NCBI GenBank assembly: GCA_041661045.1
Contig: JBAZVE010000001.1
Location: 390,001-422,000 of the forward strand
DNA from: Candidatus Saccharimonadota bacterium
GTDB taxonomy: Bacteria; Patescibacteriota; Gracilibacteria; UBA1369; 2-02-FULL-48-14
Length of the DNA: 32,000 nt
Direction: 5' to 3'
Shown here: piece by piece, positions 12,189 to 26,415 of the stretch
Layout: every line of letters starts with the position of its first letter
Numbering within the stretch: the stretch's first letter is position 1
Translations under genes and position numbers: made by a program
The notes under the pieces: generated by a model
What the model was told of the DNA's origin: nothing
Seen by the model: only the letters and a program-made list of their open reading frames with translations
Database searches by the model: none

Positions 12189-12626
12189 ATGCAAGTCAAA
12201 GCACTCATTCAATCCCCCATTGTCCGCGAAGTTCTTATTTTTGCCGGACTCCTGGGCGCTGCTCTTTTGGTTTCTCAACTCCTGCCCGGCATGAGTTTTG
12301 CAAACGGTTTTATTGATGACTCCGACAACCTCGACATCGTTGGTGATGCCACCAATAATGAAGGAGATCTTAAGGAGCTCATCAAAGATATTCTCAATTA
12401 CTTCCTTGGATTCTTGGGCTTTGTGGCTACCGTGATGGTGATTTACGGCGGTGTGCTCTACATTACAGATGGAGGAAGCGACGAAAATGTTGGTAAGGCT
12501 AAAAAGATTTTGATGTATGCCGCCATTGGTATCATCCTCATCTTGATCTCCTTCGCACTGGTCAACACCATCTTGGGTGCCGGACTTGGTGGAGGCGCAA
12601 GCACAAGTACCACAACCGTGAACTGA
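12189..12626 (+). CDS. T4SS-pilin-like (TrbC/VirB2-like) small secreted membrane protein
   Basis: Signal peptide followed by two TM helices separated by a short charged loop (VMVIYGGVLYITDGGSDENVGKAKKILMYAAIGIILILISFALVNTILG). This architecture is typical of the CPR-abundant pilin family. Confidence 0.6.
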   Translation: MQVKALIQSPIVREVLIFAGLLGAALLVSQLLPGMSFANGFIDDSDNLDIVGDATNNEGDLKELIKDILNYFLGFLGFVATVMVIYGGVLYITDGGSDENVGKAKKILMYAAIGIILILISFALVNTILGAGLGGGASTSTTTVN

Positions 12627-15418: not shown

Positions 15419-15495
15419 CGGGGTATAGCAAAGTTGGCTATTGCGCTCGGTTTGGGACCGAGAGGCCGCAGGTTCGAGTCCTGCTACCCCGACCA
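15419..15495 (+). tRNA. tRNA-Pro (anticodon UGG), CCA encoded
   Basis: Cloverleaf read by eye: acceptor CGGGGTA/TACCCCG, D stem GCAA/TTGC, anticodon stem CTCGG/CCGAG with loop TTTGGGA, T arm GCAGG-TTCGAGT-CCTGC, discriminator A plus CCA. 77 nt. Confidence 0.93.
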
Positions 15496-17087
15496 TTTAG
15501 GACTTTTGCATGTTCTTCAAACTCCTTGAATGGAGAATTTAGGCTGTACGAAGCCACTTTCTTTTCTTTCACGGTGAAGTTCGAGAAGAGTTTTTTGATT
15601 AAGTAGTCTTTCTTTTCTAAAACTTTCTCATTTCGCAACCGTAAGCCAAAATCTTTGAAAAGTTCTACAAATTGATCGTAACTTAAAACCTCGGCGTTTT
15701 GCTTTTTCTTTTTCTCTTGGAGAGTTGCGAGCTGGGACTCTAACCCCTCCTGTTGCGTTAAGAGCTTGGCTATTTCCGATTGGTAAAATTCTCTCACCAA
15801 CTTGTCTTTTACTTCTTCCGCCATATTCATTCTGCTTTGAATGCGCCCGCTCAATTGTTTGAGACTTTGGCGTGTTGACTGCTCTTGGGAAGTCAACTCC
15901 TCAACTGTTTTCCTATTCACCCTATGCATTTCTTTTTGATAGTGCTGATAAATTTTTGCCGAGGTGAAATCATGCTGATCAAGAAATGTATCTACAAAAT
16001 CTGTGATGATATGTGCGCGCACGGATTTGTTATGAAACGAACATTTAGGAGTTGTGCATCGGTAGAAAAAATACCGTTTGTCAGCTTTGACCTTGTGGGT
16101 TATATTCGGCACCATCTTTTTTTCACAATGACCGCAGTAAACAAGGCCTCTTAGAAAGTCAGCATGAACCGACCCTTCTTTGAGGTATCGCCCTCTTAAA
16201 CGGAAGCTACGCTCCACCTTTTGCATCTCATTTAACCGTATGAACTCTTCGGGTGTAATCATCGGGCAAAACCCACTTGCTTCTACAAGGTTAATGACCC
16301 TATCCCCGTAGCGGAGTATCCCCGCATAAATCGGGTCTTTTATAAACTCGGAGACTCTTTTCTTATTCATCGTATAAAGCTCATCCCCTCGTAATGTCGA
16401 TTTTTTGTAATGATTCTGATTTAGGTATTCGGCTATCTCATCAAGGGACTTTGCATCTAAACGCATTTTTAATGCATTTTGGATTAGGTCAAAATTGGTT
16501 CCGTTGGGATGCAGCTCTTGATTTTCATCTTTACGGTATCCATGCTTATTTCTCCCCAAATACTTTCCTTCGTTGGAACTTCTGTTAACACCTCGCAGTA
16601 CGCTCTGACTCAACGCCTCTGAATACTGTTTAGCAATTACGAATGCAATACCCAGCATAACCTTGCCAGAGACGCTATTCTCAAAGTTAAATGCTACAAA
16701 TTTCAAATCTCTGATCACCCCCTTGTCTAGAAGATCAATTACCTCTCCCGCATCTTTCATGTTTCTGGAGAGCCGATCAGGATGCCAAGCTAAAATTGCA
16801 TCGTATTTCCCAGCTTTAATGTCTGCAATCATCTGATTGAACTTTGGCCGTGATTCTGAATTCTTGGCCGAAGCCGCTTCTTGAATTTCTTCTACTACGT
16901 TAAGACCCAGTTTTCTTTGCAAGATACGGGCTTCATCCACTTGATCACCAATTGAACGCACCTGCTCACCATCTTCTTCTCTGGACTTGCGGGCATACAA
17001 TACATAGCGTGGAGGTTTTTCCTCTACCCCTTCTGATTCTGGAGTCACAAAACTTTTTAAGAACCGTTCAAAATCTTTTAATTCCAT
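15438..17087 (-). CDS. large serine recombinase (integrase)
   Basis: N-terminal resolvase domain (YVLYARKSREEDGEQVRSIGDQ...HPDRLSRN). Central recombinase domain. Zinc ribbon CGHC...YRCTTPKC. C-terminal coiled coil. The last 19 codons are antisense to tRNA-Pro. Confidence 0.9.
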   Translation of the reverse strand: MELKDFERFLKSFVTPESEGVEEKPPRYVLYARKSREEDGEQVRSIGDQVDEARILQRKLGLNVVEEIQEAASAKNSESRPKFNQMIADIKAGKYDAILAWHPDRLSRNMKDAGEVIDLLDKGVIRDLKFVAFNFENSVSGKVMLGIAFVIAKQYSEALSQSVLRGVNRSSNEGKYLGRNKHGYRKDENQELHPNGTNFDLIQNALKMRLDAKSLDEIAEYLNQNHYKKSTLRGDELYTMNKKRVSEFIKDPIYAGILRYGDRVINLVEASGFCPMITPEEFIRLNEMQKVERSFRLRGRYLKEGSVHADFLRGLVYCGHCEKKMVPNITHKVKADKRYFFYRCTTPKCSFHNKSVRAHIITDFVDTFLDQHDFTSAKIYQHYQKEMHRVNRKTVEELTSQEQSTRQSLKQLSGRIQSRMNMAEEVKDKLVREFYQSEIAKLLTQQEGLESQLATLQEKKKKQNAEVLSYDQFVELFKDFGLRLRNEKVLEKKDYLIKKLFSNFTVKEKKVASYSLNSPFKEFEEHAKVLNGRGSRTRTCGLSVPNRAQ

Positions 17088-17125
17088 GCCTTTATATTAT
17101 TCCACTGCCTCGCATACGGAAATGT

Positions 17126-17566
17126 TCATATTTGTTTACGTTCTTCACTTTGCCTGACTGCTTGAATGATACTGATGTTCACTGGATAGGTTGGCATCGT
17201 TGGTTCTTGAAACTTTGGATTAAACATACCGATATGTTTTCCAAGTAGTTCTAAGGCCTTCAATGCTCCGTAGGCATCTATCGTCCACTGTTCGGCACTT
17301 CTTCCCACTGTCTTTCTTTCAAGGCATTTTAGGACGATTTCTTTGAGATTTTCGATGATATAAGTTTCGTCGTAAAGAGCTTGGCGTTTCCTCGCTTCAA
17401 AATGTTTCTTTAGACCTGTTTGAATATATGGGTCGTCCATGAGTAGAGAGCCACGGGTTCTTGCTCCATTTTCGCTATAGCCTGCCCGTACAGCGGCTTT
17501 GGCTTGGTTGAAGTCTTTTAGATACTCTTCTACGAAAAGCTCTTTTCTGACTGTGGTCGTGCTCAT
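17126..17566 (-). CDS. phage terminase small subunit (Terminase_2-like)
   Basis: RKELFVEEYLKDFNQAKAAVRAGYSENGARTRGSLLMDDPYIQ matches the characteristic TerS N-terminus (F..EYL.d.Na..AA.rAGYS...A). Confidence 0.85.
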   Translation of the reverse strand: MSTTTVRKELFVEEYLKDFNQAKAAVRAGYSENGARTRGSLLMDDPYIQTGLKKHFEARKRQALYDETYIIENLKEIVLKCLERKTVGRSAEQWTIDAYGALKALELLGKHIGMFNPKFQEPTMPTYPVNISIIQAVRQSEERKQI

Positions 17567-17616
17567 AACAGTGTCGGTAAAATCACTGATATTTTACGCT
17601 TCTGAACTGGGAAAGT

Positions 17617-18144
17617 TTACTCCGTCTGTATGTCCACATACTCCCAAGCTCCAAAATCGGACGGGTCTCCACCTAAGAAACGGAGTTGTATTGTGTAGTA
17701 AGTCCGAATCATTGCCCCAAAGCCATTTTGTGAGTCCACATAGGAGTAAATCGTATAAACATCTGCCTCCTTACTCACCGTGTAGGGGTCGTCAAACATG
17801 GTTGAAGGGAACTCTGCTGTGGTTGGAGATTTGAGCGTAGCCTCCACAAAGTGTTTGGCCATTAAGTAAGCCTCAAAGTCCGATGCCTCTGTTCTGAATT
17901 CTGGTGTGCTACTTGGTTGATTTACTCCCATTTCATCAAGAGCCTGTCCAAGCATGCCTAGAAAGAAAATAACCAGAAAGATCACGAGAGGGACGGCACA
18001 GCAGTTGGAAATACTTTGCTTTTGTCCACAGTGTGAACACTTGGTGGCCTTCTTTGGTATCTCTTGAAGACAAGCCTTACAAGTTTTCTTTGTTTCGTGG
18101 GTAGTCATGGGATAGGGAAATAGATTTGCCTCACTATATCCCAT
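17617..18144 (-). CDS. zinc-ribbon, single-pass membrane protein with extracytoplasmic domain
   Basis: CKACLQEIPKKATKCSHCGQ zinc ribbon, then TM CCAVPLVIFLVIFFLGML, then C-terminal KSPTTAEFP...YVDSQNGFGAMIRTYY domain. Confidence 0.6.
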   Translation of the reverse strand: MGYSEANLFPYPMTTHETKKTCKACLQEIPKKATKCSHCGQKQSISNCCAVPLVIFLVIFFLGMLGQALDEMGVNQPSSTPEFRTEASDFEAYLMAKHFVEATLKSPTTAEFPSTMFDDPYTVSKEADVYTIYSYVDSQNGFGAMIRTYYTIQLRFLGGDPSDFGAWEYVDIQTE

Positions 18145-18181
18145 TTTGGGTTATCCGAAAAAGGGATTTAGCATTCTTTCC

Positions 18182-18397
18182 ATGAATAGCCTCCACTCTA
18201 AGGAGTACCGTGACCTCATAGATAAACTCACCAAAGCTCGCAGAGATGCAGGTTTTACGCAGGTTCAAGTTGCAGACCTTTTAGGGAAACCACAGTCTTT
18301 CGTTTCCAAGGTTGAAACTTTCCAGAGACGGATTGATGTGCTTGAATTAAAGAAGTTGGCTAAGGTTTATAAAAAGAACCCCAACGACTTTCTCTAA
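18182..18397 (+). CDS. XRE-family helix-turn-helix transcriptional regulator
   Basis: FTQVQVADLLGKPQSFVSKVETFQRRIDVLELKKLAKVY is a canonical HTH_3 segment. ATG 18182 preferred over TTG 18146. Divergent from the Zn-ribbon gene. Confidence 0.8.
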   Translation: MNSLHSKEYRDLIDKLTKARRDAGFTQVQVADLLGKPQSFVSKVETFQRRIDVLELKKLAKVYKKNPNDFL

Positions 18398-18405
18398 AAA
18401 TTCTC

Positions 18406-19038
18406 ATGGCAAATCTCTTTGTTCTGGCGTTGCTACTATCTCTCGTCGCTCTACCAGTGGGTTTAATCAAGCCAGCGGTTTTTCAGAAGATCGTCAAAAA
18501 ACTGATGGGCAAGGATGCGACTCGCAAAAATGTCCTTGGTAGTCTGGCATCCCTTGCTTTGGTGAGCTTCATTGGTATTGGCGTGACTGCTCCAACTCCT
18601 GTTCCAGAAAGTGATGTGGAAGTTACTTCAACCGAAGAAGTTCAAGCGATTGAAATGGAGAAGCCGACTTTGGAAGAAACTGTTGAGAGTGAAGCTATAA
18701 CAAGTGTCAGTTCCGAATCAAAGGTCGAAGAACAGGTTCAAACTACACAGCCAGCGGTGAGTGAATCAGCTACGATAGTCCAACCAGAAACCACAACAAC
18801 GACCCAATCTTCCAGTGAAGAAACTTATACTGTGGAGGAGGTGCAAGAGCCTATTTATGAAGAACCCGAACCCACTTCTTGGTACACTTGCAGTTCAAAT
18901 ACTTATAATTGTTCCAGTTTTTCTACTCACGCCGAAGCCCAGTCTGTTTATGATGGGTGCTTAGCCCAAGTGGGCTATGATGTGCATGGATTGGAGGGAA
19001 ATGATAACGATGGATTGGCGTGTGAAAGTTTACCCTGA
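18406..19038 (+). CDS. membrane-anchored Excalibur calcium-binding-domain protein
   Basis: N-terminal TM, E/T/S-rich linker, C-terminal CSSFSTHAEAQSVYDGC...HGLEGNDNDGLACESL (Excalibur DxDxDGxxCE motif). Confidence 0.75.
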   Translation: MANLFVLALLLSLVALPVGLIKPAVFQKIVKKLMGKDATRKNVLGSLASLALVSFIGIGVTAPTPVPESDVEVTSTEEVQAIEMEKPTLEETVESEAITSVSSESKVEEQVQTTQPAVSESATIVQPETTTTTQSSSEETYTVEEVQEPIYEEPEPTSWYTCSSNTYNCSSFSTHAEAQSVYDGCLAQVGYDVHGLEGNDNDGLACESLP

Positions 19039-19043
19039 AAACA

Positions 19044-19814
19044 ATGGAGCTTGAGTTATGTCCATGCTCGTCAGGCTTGCCCTATAAAGATTGCTGTTTT
19101 TTGAAGTTTGATGCAAATGGGAATCGTTTATTTGACACTGGCCATAGGCGTGGCGATGCCGACGGCAACTGGTATCCGATGCCAAATATCCAGATTGCGA
19201 TGACCCTTGGGGTTAAAGTTAATGATAAGTTTCGTGAGCACGCAGAGTCGATTGTTAAAAGGTCTAAACTGCCACAAGAGAGGTACACAGATTTTGTTAA
19301 TGCGTTTGCCCTCTTTCTTGCTTCATACAGTGGGTTTATCCAAGAAGTCTCAAAGCCTCATGGTACAGGTGCATCTTTTAGTGTCGACTCGATAGAAGGC
19401 AGAGAAACTTGGAGAAAGTTTCTTGTTAATGGAAGAATCCTTATCGATTTCATTGGTAGGCATACATGTGCCGCATTGAACCTTAAACAACCGCTTGGAA
19501 AAACTTTCAATCTAGACTCCATTGACTCTTTGATAAAGATTTTGGGAAACGAAGGAAGAAAACGCCCAGAATTGCTGCTCATCAAGGATAAACTGCTCCA
19601 AATCAGACCTTCTCTTAAAACCTTCATCGATTTAAGAAACCTCGAAAAGTTTTCTGGAGACACAATCGTGGAATTCCCCGCAGTTCACGAAAAGGGTATT
19701 ACAAAGGATGGCGTAGTGAGGACTCAAGAAGCAACATACCCAATGGTTCACACTGCTGAAAGTGCTTATAAAGCCATATGCCTGCTCGTAGATTTGCTAC
19801 TGGGCATTTCTTGA
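19044..19814 (+). CDS. SEC-C metal-binding-motif protein of unknown function
   Basis: N-terminal CPCSSGLPYKDCC (SEC-C motif); the rest is unrecognised. Its 3' end overlaps the convergent 183-aa gene by 18 nt. Confidence 0.6.
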   Translation: MELELCPCSSGLPYKDCCFLKFDANGNRLFDTGHRRGDADGNWYPMPNIQIAMTLGVKVNDKFREHAESIVKRSKLPQERYTDFVNAFALFLASYSGFIQEVSKPHGTGASFSVDSIEGRETWRKFLVNGRILIDFIGRHTCAALNLKQPLGKTFNLDSIDSLIKILGNEGRKRPELLLIKDKLLQIRPSLKTFIDLRNLEKFSGDTIVEFPAVHEKGITKDGVVRTQEATYPMVHTAESAYKAICLLVDLLLGIS

Positions 19815-20348
19815 AAGATGTTCAATCCAATCAATCACGCTTCCGAAGGCTCCGCCTAGTTCTTCGGCAAAAGTTAAAAGGGTGAACAAAATATAGCAGG
19901 CAAGAAACAAGTAAGGGACGAAGCCTTCCAGATGAGAAAAAGGTAAGTATCTCCCAGCATTTCTCCCTTTTTCAAGAATGCTCCATTCAGTTCTATAGAG
20001 TGCTAGGGGAAGTTTTTCTTCCACTTGATGGAGCACTGTAAATTTGCCCGTGTTCATTTGTCGATAGGAAAGAATTGTCCTAGCCCATACGAAACAAATG
20101 AGAACGCCCAGAATCAAGACCAATAATTCAATGTTTGCTGAAAACTCCTCCTTAACAAAAAACCCCAACGCCGTCATCAAGAAGGTGTTTAACGAAAGAA
20201 AAAAGGTGTTAGCCCGTTCTCTCCTTTCACTGATTTTATCTATTCCCTCAACATAAATTCTATACTGCTCAAGAACGTGCTCTCGATACTGATGCCCGTA
20301 CTTCTTTTGGTCAGCAGAAAATAGTTTGATTTTATTCTTGTTCCTCAT
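19797..20348 (-). CDS. small multi-TM protein, putative membrane effector (SLATT-like by architecture)
   Basis: About 45-aa charged N-terminal helix (YREHVLEQYRIYVEGIDKISERRERAN), then hydrophobic segments NTFFLSLNTFLMTALGFFV, IELLVLILGVLICFVWARTIL and GFVPYLFLACYILFTLLTF. Start lies 3 nt after the TIR-like gene's stop. Confidence 0.6.
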   Translation of the reverse strand: MRNKNKIKLFSADQKKYGHQYREHVLEQYRIYVEGIDKISERRERANTFFLSLNTFLMTALGFFVKEEFSANIELLVLILGVLICFVWARTILSYRQMNTGKFTVLHQVEEKLPLALYRTEWSILEKGRNAGRYLPFSHLEGFVPYLFLACYILFTLLTFAEELGGAFGSVIDWIEHLSRNAQ

Positions 20349-20351
20349 GCT

Positions 20352-20729
20352 TTATCGATTGCCATTGAGTAAAAGCCCCACATTTTCCCAAGTCCAGCGA
20401 TATCTTTTAAGTCCTTCGATAGCAGGACAAGTTTTTTCCTTGTATCCAACGATACTTACAACTGGGACACCAGCCTCTCTTGCCATTTGGATTTCAGCTT
20501 TTACGCCAGAACAAGTGTGAGTTTTCTCTCCCAAGATCACGATTACTAAATCACACTTTTTGATCTTGATTAGACATTGTTCCTTCCAAGTTCTTTCATC
20601 CCAAGGTACTTTCACTGACCAGTCTTCTAGCTCAAAGGGTGTATCAGAGTTACGCCCATGTGCTACGAAAGCATCCCTTAAAAACTGGTCATTCTCGAAA
20701 TCAAAGCTAATAAATACTTTTTTCTTCAT
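20352..20729 (-). CDS. stand-alone TIR-like domain protein (DUF1863 / ThsB-like)
   Basis: KKVFISFDFENDQFLRDAF at the N-terminus, CDLVIVILGEKTHTCSGVKAEIQMAREAGVPVVSIV later. This pattern is typical of the MTH538/TIR-like family. Confidence 0.8.
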   Translation of the reverse strand: MKKKVFISFDFENDQFLRDAFVAHGRNSDTPFELEDWSVKVPWDERTWKEQCLIKIKKCDLVIVILGEKTHTCSGVKAEIQMAREAGVPVVSIVGYKEKTCPAIEGLKRYRWTWENVGLLLNGNR

Positions 20730-20809
20730 GCAACGAACGTTAGCACAAGTTATGATTCAACAAAAGAAGGACTCAACCAAGTATGTAGGTTCGATGAACG
20801 TCGCCCTTA

Positions 20810-20977
20810 TTACTTTCTTCGTCCACTGAAACCGAGATTGACCACATTCCCATCTCTAGCAACGGCCTGATTGGGGCTTAAATTACTAGGAGTTGAAGAA
20901 GGTTTACTCGATGTTGGAGTTCCTTGTCCTTGGAGAGCTTGAGCTACATCTGTTAGTGCGTCTTTTCTTCCAACCAT
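20810..20977 (-). CDS. possible small ORF (55 aa, low-complexity)
   Basis: ATG..TAA ORF below the track's 60-aa cutoff, co-directional with and upstream of the TIR-like gene. Product MVGRKDALTDVAQALQGQGTPTSSKPSSTPSN... No RBS seen. Confidence 0.2.
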   Translation of the reverse strand: MVGRKDALTDVAQALQGQGTPTSSKPSSTPSNLSPNQAVARDGNVVNLGFSGRRK

Positions 20978-20995
20978 ATGAATTTTTAAGGATGG

Positions 20996-21169
20996 CTACA
21001 TCGTAACATCATTTAGTTTTCCAGTACACACGAGCAGGTCACCCCTCAAGAATTGCTCCATTTCGATGTTGAACTTATCGAGGCTTGCGTAGGTACGTTC
21101 AAGTAGTTCAAGATTTTGAAGTTCTACTTTAGTTCCTATCCCCCGACCATCTTGACTGGTACAGTACAT
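20996..21169 (-). CDS. possible small ORF (57 aa, helical)
   Basis: ATG..TAG ORF, product MYCTSQDGRGIGTKVELQNLELLERTYASLDKFNIEMEQFLRGDLLVCTGKLNDVTM. Only 31 nt from the divergent ATP-grasp start, which argues against it. Confidence 0.2.
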   Translation of the reverse strand: MYCTSQDGRGIGTKVELQNLELLERTYASLDKFNIEMEQFLRGDLLVCTGKLNDVTM

Positions 21170-21200
21170 TATTGTATTATGCCCGTCTTAAGCGAGGGCT

Positions 21201-22256
21201 ATGAAAATTTCAATACCCAGTGGTTTTGGTGAAAGAGATTTGGTCTCTCCATGGACAATGCTGTTGGGAGATGATCAAGATGTGACTTGGAACTCTACAA
21301 TGAGGTTTGCTGAACAGATGACTGCTGCCGAAAGGTGGCTGCGAAAAGTCCTTGAAGGGCTCAGTGATGTCCAAGTGATTGAAGGGGCCTGGGATAGTAG
21401 TGATGTATCCATAAGCTCTCCCTTTAAGCCAGATGACTTAGTAGACCAAACCATATTCGAAGGAACAACTATAAGGAAACCACGAACAGTTCCTTTACAT
21501 GAGTTTTTGCAACACCCTCGATATCCTGTTGTAGCAAAGGACACAAAAGCTAACGAAGGTCACTGGAAATTTCTCATCAAAGATGAGAGTGGTTTGGATA
21601 CATTTGTGAATTTTTTGAGAACCAAAGGGTTCCCTGTCAGTCAGTTTGTCTTTCAAGATTTTATTCAGCAAGACAGCCATCGTTCTTATGTTAGCTCTTA
21701 TAGAGTCCTTGTTGGTGCAACGGGTCAAATATTTGCCGCGGCTTTGATATGTAGAGATAAATCAAGCAAAGCCTCTGTTTTACCAGATGATCCTTTTTCT
21801 GAACTGACGCAGCCAGACTCAGATTGGTTTTTAGGGGGGCAGGAGTTTTGCTCGAATGTAGCACAAGGAGGCAGAATATTTCCTCTTGAGCCTGCTAGAC
21901 AACCTGATCGACCAGTGGATTGGGAAGAGGTTTTAAAAGACCATAGTATTGATACGCGTAGGCCAGTATTACCAGAGCAAATTGAAGAAGTTTCAAAGAG
22001 AGTTGGACGACTTGTAGCACCGCGAACTGACCTAGTTTTGGGAGTCGATTTCATGACCGATCAAAGTGGAAATCATTGGTACTTAGAAACGAACTCAGGC
22101 CCTGGACTGGCAACATATCTCTATGCTCATAAGCGTGGCTTTGCTCAGACCTTACATCTTGACCCTTTCAAAGCCATAACGGTTGAGGCCTTGTTTGCTT
22201 TGGGAGTAGATCTAAGGTCTCAATATCCATGGAGAAACAAACCTTACCAATTTTAA
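21201..22256 (+). CDS. ATP-grasp fold protein (RimK-like ligase family)
   Basis: VVAKDTKANEGHWKFLIKDESG..., FVFQDFIQQ, YRVLVGATGQIFAAALICR, SNVAQGGRIFPL and LGVDFMTDQSGNHWYLETNSGPGL follow the ATP-grasp order of motifs. Confidence 0.7.
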   Translation: MKISIPSGFGERDLVSPWTMLLGDDQDVTWNSTMRFAEQMTAAERWLRKVLEGLSDVQVIEGAWDSSDVSISSPFKPDDLVDQTIFEGTTIRKPRTVPLHEFLQHPRYPVVAKDTKANEGHWKFLIKDESGLDTFVNFLRTKGFPVSQFVFQDFIQQDSHRSYVSSYRVLVGATGQIFAAALICRDKSSKASVLPDDPFSELTQPDSDWFLGGQEFCSNVAQGGRIFPLEPARQPDRPVDWEEVLKDHSIDTRRPVLPEQIEEVSKRVGRLVAPRTDLVLGVDFMTDQSGNHWYLETNSGPGLATYLYAHKRGFAQTLHLDPFKAITVEALFALGVDLRSQYPWRNKPYQF

Positions 22257-22267
22257 AAGATACGGCG

Positions 22268-22816
22268 CTAGCAGATATAAAACAAAGCCGGAATCCCAAA
22301 TCCTAAGATGAGCTCAAGTGGTTTGTGTCTTTTTAGGAGTAGGCGTGAGTAAACGACGAGTGGAATCGTAAGAAAAATCAGCGGAGATAAGTTGAAATCT
22401 TGAACGAGCGCAAAACACAAAATTGTGATTAAAGCGACATGGATGCTCACTTTAATTTTAAAGTTAAAGAGAATGAGGAGTGTGGCTATTGCCAGTAATC
22501 GGCTAAAATCATAGAAAATTTCTTTTGTTGAGAACAAATACAGATAAATAATCGAGAGCATTAACCCAATTAGAGTAGCATAGTAGAGTGGGTATCTTTG
22601 AATGCGTTTACTGACATCAAAGTCCGATATCCTTTTCGTTTTGTATAGGTAAAGAAAGTATAAGAACGGCATTACAAACGATAGTCCCAGTACTGCCAAA
22701 AAGGATGATAATTGATCCCACTTAAAGTAAACAACTGTGAGCAAAGGAAATACAAAAACTGGATGTGCAATGAACGAGATTGCTTCGCAGATTTTGACTT
22801 TTAGAGCTTTTTTCAT
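22268..22816 (-). CDS. PAP2-superfamily-like polytopic membrane protein
   Basis: Five to six TM segments. KVSIHVA resembles PAP2 motif C2 (SGH). YSRLLLKRHKPLELILG fits C3 SR-x5-H-x3-(D/E). Motif C1 is weak. Very AT-rich. Confidence 0.5.
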   Translation of the reverse strand: MKKALKVKICEAISFIAHPVFVFPLLTVVYFKWDQLSSFLAVLGLSFVMPFLYFLYLYKTKRISDFDVSKRIQRYPLYYATLIGLMLSIIYLYLFSTKEIFYDFSRLLAIATLLILFNFKIKVSIHVALITILCFALVQDFNLSPLIFLTIPLVVYSRLLLKRHKPLELILGFGIPALFYIC

Positions 22817-22865
22817 ATTGATTACAGTTTAACTATTTTTACAGGAAATCAGCTCTGAATAAAAC

Positions 22866-22958
22866 CTACTCTTTGCCACTGAAGCTGAGCAGCATGCCGA
22901 TGACGCTTGCGAGGATACTGACGATCCCAAGAATGAATTGTAGAAGTTGATTAGACAT
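22866..22958 (-). CDS. possible 30-aa hydrophobic peptide
   Basis: Product MSNQLLQFILGIVSILASVIGMLLSFSGKE. Its ATG directly follows the terminator U-run and no RBS is seen. Confidence 0.2.
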   Translation of the reverse strand: MSNQLLQFILGIVSILASVIGMLLSFSGKE

Positions 22959-22995
22959 AAAAAAACGGTTACAGGATTTAAATCGGTGTAACCGT
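22959..22995 (-). terminator. rho-independent terminator (arm 2:arm 3 of an attenuator-like structure)
   Basis: On minus-strand RNA, ACGGUUACA (22995-22987) pairs with UGUAACCGU (22973-22965), followed by U6-7 (22964-22959). Confidence 0.6.
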
Positions 22996-23025
22996 CTTTA
23001 AGTATGTTAAACGACTGGTTACACC
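22985..23025 (-). promoter_or_regulatory. alternative (antiterminator) helix, arm 1:arm 2
   Basis: GGUGUAACC (23025-23017) is perfectly complementary to GGUUACACC (22993-22985). It shares 7 nt with the terminator's 5' arm, so the two helices are mutually exclusive. Confidence 0.5.
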
Positions 23026-23868: not shown

Positions 23869-26415
23869 TTGGCTTTTGTCAATAGCACGATGCGGCGGGT
23901 TTCGACGGGGCCTGTTAAAATGAGCTGGATGAGTACTATGGCGAAATTCTTCAGGTTTGTTTCCACTTCTTTTGAGCCCGAAAAGAAACGCGTACGGTTT
24001 GCGTATGAGATGCATTTGAAGGGTGGAAAGGTCATGCGTTTTACGGAAACGGTGGATTTGCCACGCGTGCCGCAGCTTAAAGATCTGCCGGCGGGCCTTT
24101 TGGACCGTGTGCTGGAAAGTGTGCATTTGATGCTGGGAATAAGTTATTACAAACTGTATTGCCCGGAAAAAGTGGAGATCCCGTACGCGCTCAGCAAGGA
24201 GCAGGCGGAATTTTGGACCACGATTTATAAAAAGGGCTTGGGGGAATTTGCGTATCGCAACAAGCTGGATCCGAGAAAGTTTGCGAAATTTCCATTCAAA
24301 AAGAGCGCGCGGCCGGAGGCGGTGGATTTTCCACGGAAGGACCGGAGTTTACTTGGAATTGGAGGGGGCAAAGACTCGATTGTGGCCGGGGAACTTTTGA
24401 AAGAAGCGGGCAAGGATTTTGATGCTTTTTTGGCGGACACCGAGCGCTCTTCACCCATCGTTTCCGCGGTGGTAAAAATAATGGGAGTGAAATCTTTGAG
24501 TTTGATGCGGCACCTGGATCCGCAGGTTTTTGAAGCGCATCCGGGAGCTCTCAACGGCCATGTCCCCATTTCGGGTGTGTTTGCGTTTTTGGGCCTTTTG
24601 GCTGCTGTTTTGTACGATTACCGATATGTCGTGGTGGGCAATGAGCAGAGCAGCAATTTTGGGAATGTGCAGTACAAGGGAATGGAAGTGAATCACCAAT
24701 GGAGTAAATCGGAGGAATTTGAGGCCCTGCTGCAAGGCTATACGCGGGATTTTTTGACTCCGGACATCACTTATTTTTCTTTGTTGCGGCCGTTTTATGA
24801 AATCCGGATTGCGGAAATGTTTGTGCGCTATCCTCAATATTTTCCTGTGTTCAGCAGTTGCAATCGAAGTTTTAGGGTACATAAGGCTAGGCCAACAGAC
24901 AGGAAGACTGGACTGATAGACAGGGAGACTGGGCTTCGCCCAGTATGGTGTTGTGAATGTGCCAAGTGTGTCTTTGTCTTTACGATGCTCTCCGCTTTTT
25001 TGAGCAAAAAAGATTTACTTAAAATTTTTGGGAAAGATTTGTACGAAGACAAGGCCCTGGAGCCTCTCTTTAAAGATCTGCTTGGAGAGGGCACGATGAA
25101 ACCCTTTGACTGTGTGGGGACTTTTGAAGAGATGCGGGCGGCGTATGCGATGGCAAAGGGAGAAAATCTGAACCCCAAGGTTTTATTCAAAACTGCACCG
25201 GCGCCCACGGTTCCTGTGCCTTTCAAACTTCTGGGGATGGAAAGCGTTTTGATTTTGGGCTATGGCCGCGAAGGCAAGGTGACTCATGAATTCTTAAGGC
25301 AACGCTACCCCAAACTCAGCATCGGTGTGGGAGATCGCGACCTCGACCCCAATTATTTACTCCGTCAGGAAGATTTTGATTTTGTCGTTAAAACGCCCGG
25401 CATCCCCCGTGCCATGGTGACGCGCCCCTACACCACGGCCAGTAATTTGTTCTTTGCCGAAAAGCCCGGCTTGGTGATTGGAGTGACCGGCAGCAAGGGG
25501 AAGAGCACCACGGCTTCTTTAATTGCGCATCTTTTGGAAACGAGCGGCAAGCGGGTCCATTTATTGGGGAATATTGGTAAGCCCATGCTCTCTGCTTTGA
25601 TGGAAAAATCTAAGGGAATATTTGTACTTGAACTGTCCAGTTACCAATTGGAGGATTTGGAATATTCACCCGACATTGCCGTGGTCACCAATCTTTTCCC
25701 CGAACACATGAACTATCATGGCGGCCTGGAGAATTATTATGGGGCAAAGAGTCGCTGTATTCGATTCATGCGCAATGGTTCACACTTTATCTACAATCCA
25801 AAAGTCCGTTTGATTAAAGGCTGGCAGACCCGAGCACAACGGGTTCCTTTCACCACCCAGTTGCCTCTTAAGGATTCGGAGATCCCCCTGCTCGGCCAGC
25901 ACAACCGCGACAATGTTCGGGCGGCGGTTACGGCTTCGCGATTGCTTGGGGTTTCTGAGACCACGATTAAAAAGGGGATACTCTCGTTCAAGCCCCTGTC
26001 CCATCGTTTGGAGTTTGTGGGAGAGTTCAACGGAATTCGTTTTTATGACGATGCCATTTCCACCACGCCGGAGTCCACCATCATGGCGCTGAAGGCCCTC
26101 AAAAAAGTGGACACCATCTTCTTGGGCGGCGAGGACCGAGGCTATGATTTTTCTGAACTGGAAAAAGTTTTACGACGGATGAAGGTGCGGAACATTGTGC
26201 TCTTCCCAAAAACAGGAGATCGAATGCTCAAAAGTCGAGAGGGTTTTATGATCTTTGAGACGCAGAAAATGAATAAGGCCGTGCAATTTGCCTATGCCGC
26301 CACTCAGCCGGGGAAAATATGTTTACTTTCTTGTGCTTCTCCCAGTTATAGCCTGTGGAAAGACTTTGAGGACAAGGGGGAGGACTTTAAAAATTGCGTG
26401 CAAAATTTGGCGTGA
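23869..26415 (+). CDS. murD: fusion protein: N-terminal ~440-aa PP-loop (SGGxDS-like) domain plus C-terminal UDP-N-acetylmuramoyl-L-alanine--glutamate ligase (MurD)
   Basis: N-terminal part has LLGIGGGKDSIVAGELL (PP-loop) and WCCECAKC. C-terminal part from MESVLILGYGREG has the Mur-ligase P-loop VIGVTGSKGKSTTASL, NLFPEHMNYHG, GQHNRDN and HRLEFVGEFNGIRFYDDAISTTPEST. True start is uncertain (TTG 23869 or ATGs at 23890-23938). Confidence 0.8.
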   Translation: MAFVNSTMRRVSTGPVKMSWMSTMAKFFRFVSTSFEPEKKRVRFAYEMHLKGGKVMRFTETVDLPRVPQLKDLPAGLLDRVLESVHLMLGISYYKLYCPEKVEIPYALSKEQAEFWTTIYKKGLGEFAYRNKLDPRKFAKFPFKKSARPEAVDFPRKDRSLLGIGGGKDSIVAGELLKEAGKDFDAFLADTERSSPIVSAVVKIMGVKSLSLMRHLDPQVFEAHPGALNGHVPISGVFAFLGLLAAVLYDYRYVVVGNEQSSNFGNVQYKGMEVNHQWSKSEEFEALLQGYTRDFLTPDITYFSLLRPFYEIRIAEMFVRYPQYFPVFSSCNRSFRVHKARPTDRKTGLIDRETGLRPVWCCECAKCVFVFTMLSAFLSKKDLLKIFGKDLYEDKALEPLFKDLLGEGTMKPFDCVGTFEEMRAAYAMAKGENLNPKVLFKTAPAPTVPVPFKLLGMESVLILGYGREGKVTHEFLRQRYPKLSIGVGDRDLDPNYLLRQEDFDFVVKTPGIPRAMVTRPYTTASNLFFAEKPGLVIGVTGSKGKSTTASLIAHLLETSGKRVHLLGNIGKPMLSALMEKSKGIFVLELSSYQLEDLEYSPDIAVVTNLFPEHMNYHGGLENYYGAKSRCIRFMRNGSHFIYNPKVRLIKGWQTRAQRVPFTTQLPLKDSEIPLLGQHNRDNVRAAVTASRLLGVSETTIKKGILSFKPLSHRLEFVGEFNGIRFYDDAISTTPESTIMALKALKKVDTIFLGGEDRGYDFSELEKVLRRMKVRNIVLFPKTGDRMLKSREGFMIFETQKMNKAVQFAYAATQPGKICLLSCASPSYSLWKDFEDKGEDFKNCVQNLA

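Follow-up and report, generated by a model that had tools for sequence, protein, structure and literature searches.

Do a stand-alone TIR protein and the small membrane protein encoded directly behind it form an anti-phage system, and if so, how could a membrane protein of such a size read the product of a TIR? This question is raised by two neighbouring genes in a 32,000-nt stretch of contig JBAZVE010000001.1 (positions 390,001 to 422,000; the whole stretch is termed the window below), which comes from a metagenome-assembled genome (MAG) of Candidatus Gracilibacteria. The first gene encodes a 125-aa TIR and the second a 183-aa protein of the 8xMP/RipA family, and both are also called on the public contig. 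The answer favoured here, with a probability of about 0.65 and on the ground of sequence comparisons, is that the two genes make up a Thoeris-like system of abortive infection; the TIR would sense the phage and signal, and 8xMP would act as the membrane effector. An earlier note on this DNA had proposed a TIR paired with a small membrane effector, had linked the latter to SLATT proteins and had considered the arrangement possibly undescribed, especially in a host resembling those of the candidate phyla radiation (CPR); the core of the proposal is sustained by a conserved gene neighbourhood and by a swap with type IV Thoeris, while the parts that concerned SLATT, novelty and CPR had to be given up.

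The first protein is a ThsB-type TIR. It starts with MKKKVFISFDFEND and contains SGVKAEIQMAREAGVPVV, at the place and with the peptides that had been reported for it, and it matches PF08937 (ThsB_TIR) at E=2.8e-7, above the curated Pfam cut-off, as well as the ThsB models of PADLOC (E=8e-9). A PDB search with its sequence returned the solved TIRs 8wcf (EcThsB) and 8fz9 (the TIR of B. cereus). In the AlphaFold2 (AF2) model, computed from an alignment of 57 homologues (predicted local distance difference test, pLDDT, 85.2; predicted template-modelling score, pTM, 0.80), strands and helices alternate as in the flavodoxin-like fold, and Foldseek placed 8fz9 first with a template-modelling score of 0.78, followed by EcThsB 8wcf, the ThsB-Tad3 complex and the SARM1 TIR, so that the ThsB-type assignment made earlier was upheld by sequence and by fold alike. 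The conserved glutamate pointed out in the AEIQ motif is Glu79 (VKAE79IQ), which, like the rest of the active-site scaffold, is invariant across the 57 homologues; in the alignments to the PDB TIRs it falls on their VxxE motif. The family is tight and comprises dozens of stand-alone proteins of 125–135 aa, up to 68% identical. Among the TIRs listed in Table S1 of a December 2025 preprint, one that is labelled 'Caspase - Type IV' and belongs to cluster 2635319349 is 68.6% identical to the window TIR (bioRxiv 10.64898/2025.12.03.692087), while identity to PsTIR, the validated type IV TIR of Pseudomonas sp. 1-7, of which defence is lost with the E79Q substitution, is 37.5% (bioRxiv 10.1101/2024.10.24.620036). 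Wherever a Thoeris type has been characterised, stand-alone ThsB_TIR proteins of comparable length generate the signal (bioRxiv 10.64898/2025.12.03.692087), and the window TIR is predicted from its sequence to be a phage sensor and a generator of an NAD+-derived signal.

The second protein, in which no recognisable signal-sensing domain had been noted, is classifiable and matches the curated Pfam family PF24838 (8xMP, 'Octameric membrane protein family') at E=8.1e-38, with 129.8 bits against a cut-off of 30 and over positions 1–134 of the 136 of the profile. The same family is matched by all 79 aligned homologues, and the NCBI name given to homologues is 'RipA family octameric membrane protein'. 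It counts 3,837 representatives at 50% identity, nearly all of them single-domain proteins of 160–200 aa, and the extensions of the long members (L067, L045, P0284 and others) contain no recognisable domain. The AF2 monomer (pLDDT 77.7) consists of three long helices (residues 14–66, 73–112 and 139–182), and the membrane layout in Table 1 was derived from hydropathy and from the positive-inside distribution of charges. The three hydrophobic segments described earlier are thus found again as transmembrane (TM) segments, whereas the cytosolic part is not confined to one helix of about 45 aa, since the TM2-TM3 loop adds to it and about 90 cytosolic residues are predicted per protomer. In the alignment of 80 domains the near-invariant residues (E27 Q28 Y29, V33 E34, S40, R42 R43 and N47 on the N-terminal side, and W88, S94 Y95, N99, K102, E110, L113 P114, E121 W122, Y134, E141 and P145 in the remainder) are overwhelmingly concentrated in the two basic cytosolic segments, a distribution that would speak for 8xMP as the reader of a signal. 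The protein is predicted to be a homo-oligomeric membrane effector.

Membership in the SLATT group was rejected, as neither the window protein nor any of the 79 family members matched a SLATT_1-6 model; the search of the members, which extended to E<=5, gave no match to DUF2270 either, and the window protein had no Pfam match to DUF2270 at E<=1. Peptidase_C14 was not matched by the 183-aa protein, of which 8xMP is the only Pfam match above noise, and no PADLOC ThsA match was found in the pair.

The conservation of the pair was followed from both sides. One genome per species was scanned with the 8xMP profile and the best 80 of 361 relatives were kept, the open reading frames (ORFs) of each locus being searched with the window TIR and then iteratively, and other neighbours being checked with Pfam. 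The 80 loci span many bacterial phyla and several archaeal lineages, and a TIR or TIR-like gene accompanies 8xMP in 46 of them, a fraction which describes the relatives most similar to the query and is not a family-wide estimate. In 42 loci the partner is a short ThsB/TIR gene, nearly always directly upstream, co-oriented and overlapping or a few nucleotides apart; in the others it is a giant TIR_2-WD40 protein (two loci, both of Nocardia), a 308-aa TIR_2 protein (one) or a TIR-like DUF4062 protein (one). One further 8xMP gene has a caspase-like gene upstream and no detected TIR, and for 33 no partner was detected. The enrichment next to TIR genes that had been anticipated for homologues of the 183-aa protein is therefore massive. 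The reciprocal test covered nine TIR homologues from long contigs (44–68% identical to the window TIR). Seven of them precede 8xMP, and the other two have at the same position a gene for a Peptidase_C14 protein of 313 aa, as in type IV Thoeris. An alternative effector gene, either 8xMP or caspase-like, is thus found at one position within one TIR clade. The trivial explanation, that two functionally unrelated ORFs came together by chance or by an annotation artefact, is refuted by the pairing in 46 of 80 and in seven of nine loci, with order and orientation kept in distant phyla and in archaea, and its probability is practically negligible.

What belongs to the unit? Homologues of the seven flanking proteins of the window were absent from all 85 related loci and a conserved third gene was not found, so that the unit consists of two genes. 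Six loci contain two TIR paralogues with a single 8xMP gene, three of these being archaeal, and by analogy they would resemble the Thoeris loci with multiple ThsB. The archaeal MAGs are those of an uncultured archaeon (L032), a nanoarchaeote (L038, Nanoarchaeota) and a member of Aenigmatarchaeota (L054), each with two tandem TIR paralogues followed by one 8xMP gene. The TIR-8xMP module reaches DPANN-type archaea, and the pair, being found across many bacterial phyla and archaea, is not specific to CPR. In Nocardia the proteins directly upstream of 8xMP (L074:2013-5453 and L078:1937-5447) are of about 940 aa and carry an N-terminal TIR_2 domain with many WD40 repeats; this is a different, sensor-fused TIR partner of 8xMP.

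The argument depends on correct reading frames, and in some Gracilibacteria TGA is read as glycine (code 25). A code-25 boundary artefact was rejected for both genes. Since neither contains an in-frame TGA, their stops are TAA and TAG, TGA is the commonest stop among the long ORFs of the window, and TIR homologues share the start motif MKKKVF, the gene boundaries are sound. Between the TAA of the TIR gene and the ATG of the 8xMP gene stands only AGC, exactly the three nucleotides counted earlier, and this spacer indicates a tight operon junction; in related loci, among them L084-L095, the two genes overlap or lie a few nucleotides apart. Such translational coupling, as well as the small size of both proteins, is also familiar from toxin-antitoxin operons, and one may ask if 8xMP is a membrane toxin restrained by binding of the TIR (or the reverse), which a phage would release without any diffusible signal. 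This is quite improbable: Glu79 and the active-site scaffold are invariant in the 57 homologues, which argues for enzymatic activity of the TIR, the same TIRs work with an unrelated, soluble caspase-like partner, and an unrestrained toxin would hardly be expected in the many genomes where 8xMP occurs alone.

The strongest argument for the TIR as the signal generator and for 8xMP as the effector of a Thoeris-like system is provided by this swap with a validated caspase-like effector, at the same position and within one TIR clade. In the preprint, new Thoeris effectors were sought by the criterion that, within a cluster of TIRs, another gene takes the place of the effector; 29 putative configurations were described in this way and types V–XI were validated (bioRxiv 10.64898/2025.12.03.692087). 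8xMP is proposed as a Thoeris effector because it takes that place. In type IV Thoeris the TIR makes N7-cyclic ADP-ribose (N7-cADPR) and the caspase-like protease is the effector (bioRxiv 10.1101/2024.10.24.620036). Both TIR clades known to signal by N7-cADPR, i.e., the EcTIR type and the PsTIR type, also pair with 8xMP. A particular case is the locus of a Cyclobacteriaceae MAG (OZ245814.1, L053:1074-5450), in which a TPR-histidine kinase, a LuxR-type response regulator and a ThsE-like caspase are followed by 8xMP 12 nt downstream. This caspase shares 47-48% identity with those that accompany window-type TIRs, and no TIR was found within +-5 kb, so that two alternative Thoeris effectors stand together with no signal generator nearby. 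Two effectors in one Thoeris operon have been read as responding to the same signal (bioRxiv 10.64898/2025.12.03.692087), and by this analogy the caspase next to 8xMP would support two effectors for one signal.

The roles may be thought of as reversed, with 8xMP as a membrane sensor or scaffold that detects perturbation of the envelope by the phage (DNA injection, holin, or loss of membrane potential) and activates the TIR as an NADase effector. Many bacterial TIRs do deplete NAD+ as effectors, in CBASS, Pycsar, pAgo and Avs systems (bioRxiv 10.64898/2025.12.03.692087), a ligand-binding domain is not known in 8xMP, solitary members show the same conserved cytosolic surface, which fits a protein-binding or structural role, and Francisella RipA co-precipitates with the soluble LpxA (PMC4322802). 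Yet the same TIR clade switches to a caspase-like protein which is, by experiment, an effector activated by the TIR product; the TIR_2-WD40 partners in Nocardia already possess sensor-type repeats of their own; the loci with multiple TIRs and a single 8xMP recall Thoeris, in which a single effector is served by several ThsB sensors; and stand-alone TIRs of this size generate signals wherever Thoeris was characterised. The reversed order is, in consequence, improbable, and a Thoeris-like order, from TIR to 8xMP, is kept below.

To which of the Thoeris types should the pair be assigned? It is not type I, II or III, for the effector has no SIR2-SLOG, Macro-TM or SLOG domain, nor is it type V (no DUF2270) or type VII (no SLATT). 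It is not type IV either, although the TIR is from the type IV cluster, since the downstream gene encodes 8xMP and not Peptidase_C14. With type IV (ThsB and ThsE) the pair shares the TIR clade, the equivalent catalytic Glu79 and close TIR homologues that precede the 313-aa Peptidase_C14 genes, but ThsE is a soluble arginine-specific protease that kills by proteolysis, whereas the effector of the window is a membrane protein and would kill by membrane disruption. The generic traits of Thoeris are present, namely a TIR with the catalytic glutamate and, in the same operon, an effector gene with which its pairing is conserved across genomes. The pair is a Thoeris-like system with a not-yet-validated effector family, and it is neither unique nor CPR-specific.

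The closest validated analogue is type V Thoeris (ThsB and ThsF, PF10028), which is likewise a two-gene operon of a TIR and a small three-TM effector without a classical ligand-binding domain, and of which the TIR cluster is common with the type IV (caspase) systems. ThsF (DUF2270) was modelled as a circular, channel-like homo-oligomer with deep basic pockets between protomers on the cytosolic side, and it is activated specifically by 3'cADPR, which is predicted to bind in these pockets (bioRxiv 10.64898/2025.12.03.692087). The puzzle of how so short a protein would read a TIR product, left unexplained in the earlier note, has in ThsF a published precedent, with 8xMP differing in that its sequence gives no match to DUF2270. 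A genuine DUF2270/ThsF sequence was also looked for: with the type V TIR of B. thuringiensis as query, tblastn found only type I/II-like loci on plasmids, and a metagenome scan with the TIR of Bacillus sp. 1NLA3E gave one locus, next to metK. SLATT effectors (Cap proteins of CBASS; ThsH of type VII Thoeris) are comparable as small membrane-spanning proteins that are tied to generators of nucleotide signals and predicted to oligomerise and breach the membrane. They differ in having two TM segments with a cytosolic domain and a modelled filament, in contrast to the three TM segments and the predicted ring of 8xMP, and they have no sequence relationship to the 79 members.

It should be asked, too, whether the combination was seen before. 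Among the putative effectors of the preprint there is a label '3TM' (Table S1, Fig 1C), and the text names neither PF24838 nor RipA (bioRxiv 10.64898/2025.12.03.692087). Table S1 contains '3TM'-labelled TIRs with 96.9% and 82% identity to those beside 8xMP in two of the sampled loci (L011 and L058, respectively), hence the '3TM' class is almost certainly TIR with 8xMP. In view of this listing and of the curated Pfam entry, the architecture cannot be called undescribed. The '3TM' block of about 100 rows is made up only of FISHSW-type TIR clusters (2734565194 and 2556961318), and it shares with the window pair the inferred 8xMP effector; the window TIR is from another clade, cluster 2635319349, and its combination with 8xMP is not listed under 3TM in Table S1. 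In the present sample the pairing of a ThsB of this type IV cluster with 8xMP is the commonest, with 25 loci, besides the seven of nine in the reciprocal test. Confirmation of TIR-8xMP would give Thoeris a further and widespread type of effector, TIR-linked in more than half of the sampled loci, and would extend Thoeris to CPR bacteria, DPANN and other archaea.

How might the system work? The ThsB-type TIR would sense phage infection, and its Glu79 would convert NAD+ to a signal derived from ADP-ribose, most likely an isomer of cADPR. N7-cADPR is the leading candidate because the window TIR is in the TIR cluster of type IV Thoeris, a tentative choice with odds somewhat below even. The signal would be read by 8xMP, the inner-membrane three-TM protein, assembled as a homo-oligomeric ring (nominally an octamer), at basic pockets between protomers on the cytosolic face, which are suggested by analogy with ThsF. 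These pockets would be lined by E27 Q28 Y29 and R42 R43 of the N-terminal helix and by S94 Y95, N99, K102, E110 and E121 W122 of the TM2-TM3 loop. Binding of the ligand would then open or distort the ring, membrane integrity or potential would collapse, and phage replication would stop. If confirmed, 8xMP would be a second, unrelated case of a minimal 3-TM ring in which a nucleotide signal is decoded with no domain dedicated to sensing, and a useful example for the gating of small membrane proteins. As the same TIR clade drives either a caspase-like protease or 8xMP, the pair is a natural test case for a second receptor of N7-cADPR, and this possible receptor is, next to the link of the RipA family to TIR signalling, the most valuable lead.

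Several points weigh against this mechanism. TIR clusters can mix producers of different molecules, which makes the identity of the signal uncertain; in cluster 2734565194, for instance, TIRs of types IV, VII and VIII are mixed (bioRxiv 10.64898/2025.12.03.692087). In Pfam the 183-aa protein has no SLOG, Macro, SIR2 or cNMP domain, as had already been remarked, nor any other recognisable nucleotide-binding domain; 8xMP has no match in PADLOC or PHROGs, and neither sequence nor Foldseek retrieved a solved or structurally similar PDB entry. The octamer is nominal, being taken from the family name, and no paper describing it was found in the open literature on 8xMP/RipA. The '3TM' class lies outside the configurations tested in the preprint (bioRxiv 10.64898/2025.12.03.692087), and no later papers testing it were found. 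About 40% of the sampled 8xMPs are solitary, often beside housekeeping genes (MnmE, UvrA-like, PfkB), and these remaining loci are mostly of Actinomycetes and Alphaproteobacteria; a crude clustering by identity puts them into one rather tight group of sequences. The conserved residues of solitary and TIR-linked 8xMPs are identical, and no TIR-specific set of residues emerged from the alignment of 80 domains. Francisella RipA was linked to LpxA and to intracellular growth and not to phage defence (PMC4322802). Since solitary members keep the same residues and RipA is tied to LpxA, the function of the conserved cytosolic site may lie in oligomerisation or in contact with another partner, and not in binding the TIR product.

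The relation to RipA deserves attention of its own. The function of Francisella RipA has been unclear since 2008. It is a small homo-oligomeric protein of the cytoplasmic membrane with two cytoplasmic domains essential for function (PMC4322802), a topology that matches the layout of the window 8xMP, and it is the namesake of the NCBI family to which the homologues are assigned, its membership in PF24838 being presumed from the name. It differs in being a chromosomal, solitary factor of intracellular growth that is genetically and physically tied to LpxA and is not known to be connected with TIR or phage defence. Solitary RipA-like 8xMPs may, to judge from the shared residues, use the same cytosolic site. 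From all this a wider and rather unlikely proposal can be drawn: 8xMP would be an unrecognised nucleotide-gated membrane ring that reads the TIR product, possibly N7-cADPR, by its short N-terminal helix and one loop, and would constitute a putative twelfth type of Thoeris effector, serving at least two TIR clades and TIR-WD40 in bacteria and archaea. As the solitary members keep the same cytosolic residues, RipA and its many actinobacterial counterparts would then be domesticated kin of an immune pore, likewise gated by a ligand, in their case an endogenous nucleotide that is NAD-derived or related. The link of the families leads to a testable hypothesis of a ligand-gated membrane ring for a Francisella virulence factor.

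The same facts could be read in favour of a non-immune module for housekeeping or stress signalling, whose TIR would make a nucleotide that regulates a RipA-like membrane complex of envelope homeostasis. The founding member, RipA, is associated with virulence and with the envelope and has a genetic tie to LpxA, and many 8xMP genes stand alone beside housekeeping genes. The genomic context speaks otherwise and leaves this reading only a slim chance. The window pair lies on a horizontally acquired island of low GC content, with an integrase and a small terminase; related pairs occur in variable contexts, without a conserved flanking gene and near restriction-modification (RM), PLD and AAA_15 genes; the distribution is patchy across bacteria and archaea; and the TIR clade is common to a validated defence system. 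RM genes of the MmeI type or of type I, AAA_15 and PLD proteins are indeed frequent neighbours in the related loci, and together with the mobile island this is a context typical of defence genes, which is in keeping with a Thoeris-like role of the pair.

The island (Table 1) was recognised by a GC content of 0.41-0.44 at about 15.4-23.0 kb, against 0.49-0.51 outside. It begins at a tRNA-Pro and holds a large serine recombinase, a small terminase, a repressor-like regulator, further cargo genes and the TIR-8xMP pair, which bears out the description of the pair as cargo on a recombinase-bearing island. No capsid, tail or large-terminase gene was found in it, and no convincing att repeats bound it. 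From these genes it looks like a phage-satellite-like element, similar to phage-inducible chromosomal islands (PICI-like), with the pair as putative defence cargo, and as such it supports the view that defence cargo travels on satellites in ultra-small bacteria as well.

Table 1. Features of the window and predicted segments of 8xMP (nucleotide positions in the window; residues where stated)
Feature	Position	Strand	Basis or remark
Low-GC mobile island, about 7.6 kb	15419-23000		GC profile; right boundary approximate
tRNA-Pro, island start	15419-15495		tRNA search
Large serine integrase, phage-type	15438-17087	-	Resolvase/Recombinase/Zn_ribbon_recom; PHROG integrase E=4.5e-67
Small terminase (phrog_51)	17126-17566	-	PHROG E=5.4e-26
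Helix-turn-helix regulator, repressor-like	18146-18397	+	
8xMP/RipA-family membrane protein gene, 183 aa	19797-20348	-	PF24838
Spacer of 3 nt (AGC), TIR stop to 8xMP start	20349-20351	-	sequence reading
thsB-like gene, 125-aa stand-alone TIR (ThsB_TIR)	20352-20729	-	Pfam, PADLOC, AF2/Foldseek
Upstream leader	20730-21205	-	two small called ORFs and promoter-like site
Leader ORF, 55 aa	20810-20977	-	gene call on public contig
Leader ORF, 57 aa	20996-21169	-	gene call on public contig
Promoter-like site upstream of leader ORFs	21205-21176	-	promoter-like match
8xMP N-terminal helix/segment, predicted cytosolic	residues 1-45		basic, 12 K+R
8xMP TM1	residues 46-66		
8xMP short outer loop	residues 67-72		acidic
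8xMP TM2	residues 73-93		
8xMP TM2-TM3 loop, predicted cytosolic	residues 94-140		about 47 aa, basic, 7 K+R, conserved
8xMP TM3	residues 141-165		
8xMP C-terminal tail	residues 166-183		

Around the pair, several neighbours can be described. The two small leader ORFs have no Pfam match and no homologue in the 85 related loci, and they are possibly co-transcribed with the TIR-8xMP pair. At the other end, the 8xMP gene and a convergent gene for a 256-aa protein (19044-19814, +) overlap with their 3' ends by 18 nt (19797-19814); the only recognisable feature of the 256-aa protein is an N-terminal SEC-C zinc-binding motif, and it has no homologue in the related loci. Divergent from the leader and still within the island, a 351-aa protein (21201-22256) has weak ATP-grasp (YheCD/RimK-like) similarity and is not conserved in the related loci.

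Some observations were made beyond the pair itself. In Actinomycetes of two genera (L039:3459-5513 and L043:3091-5444) a radical-SAM protein is encoded directly upstream of an otherwise solitary 8xMP, which may be another conserved partnership. In a complete record of 280,592 bp (L093, CP022928.1) the TIR-8xMP pair adjoins an MmeI-type RM gene, and the translation of the record disagrees with the query protein, a mismatch that may point to an alternative genetic code or to a symbiont with a tiny genome. The flanking chromosomal region of the window encodes a 145-aa protein similar to type IV secretion system pilins (T4SS-pilin/TrbC-like; 12189-12626). Just outside the island lies an ORF of 848 aa (23869-26415), of which the N-terminal approximately 500 residues have no Pfam match and only the C-terminal approximately 310 residues carry the middle and C-terminal domains of a Mur ligase, an unusual fusion.

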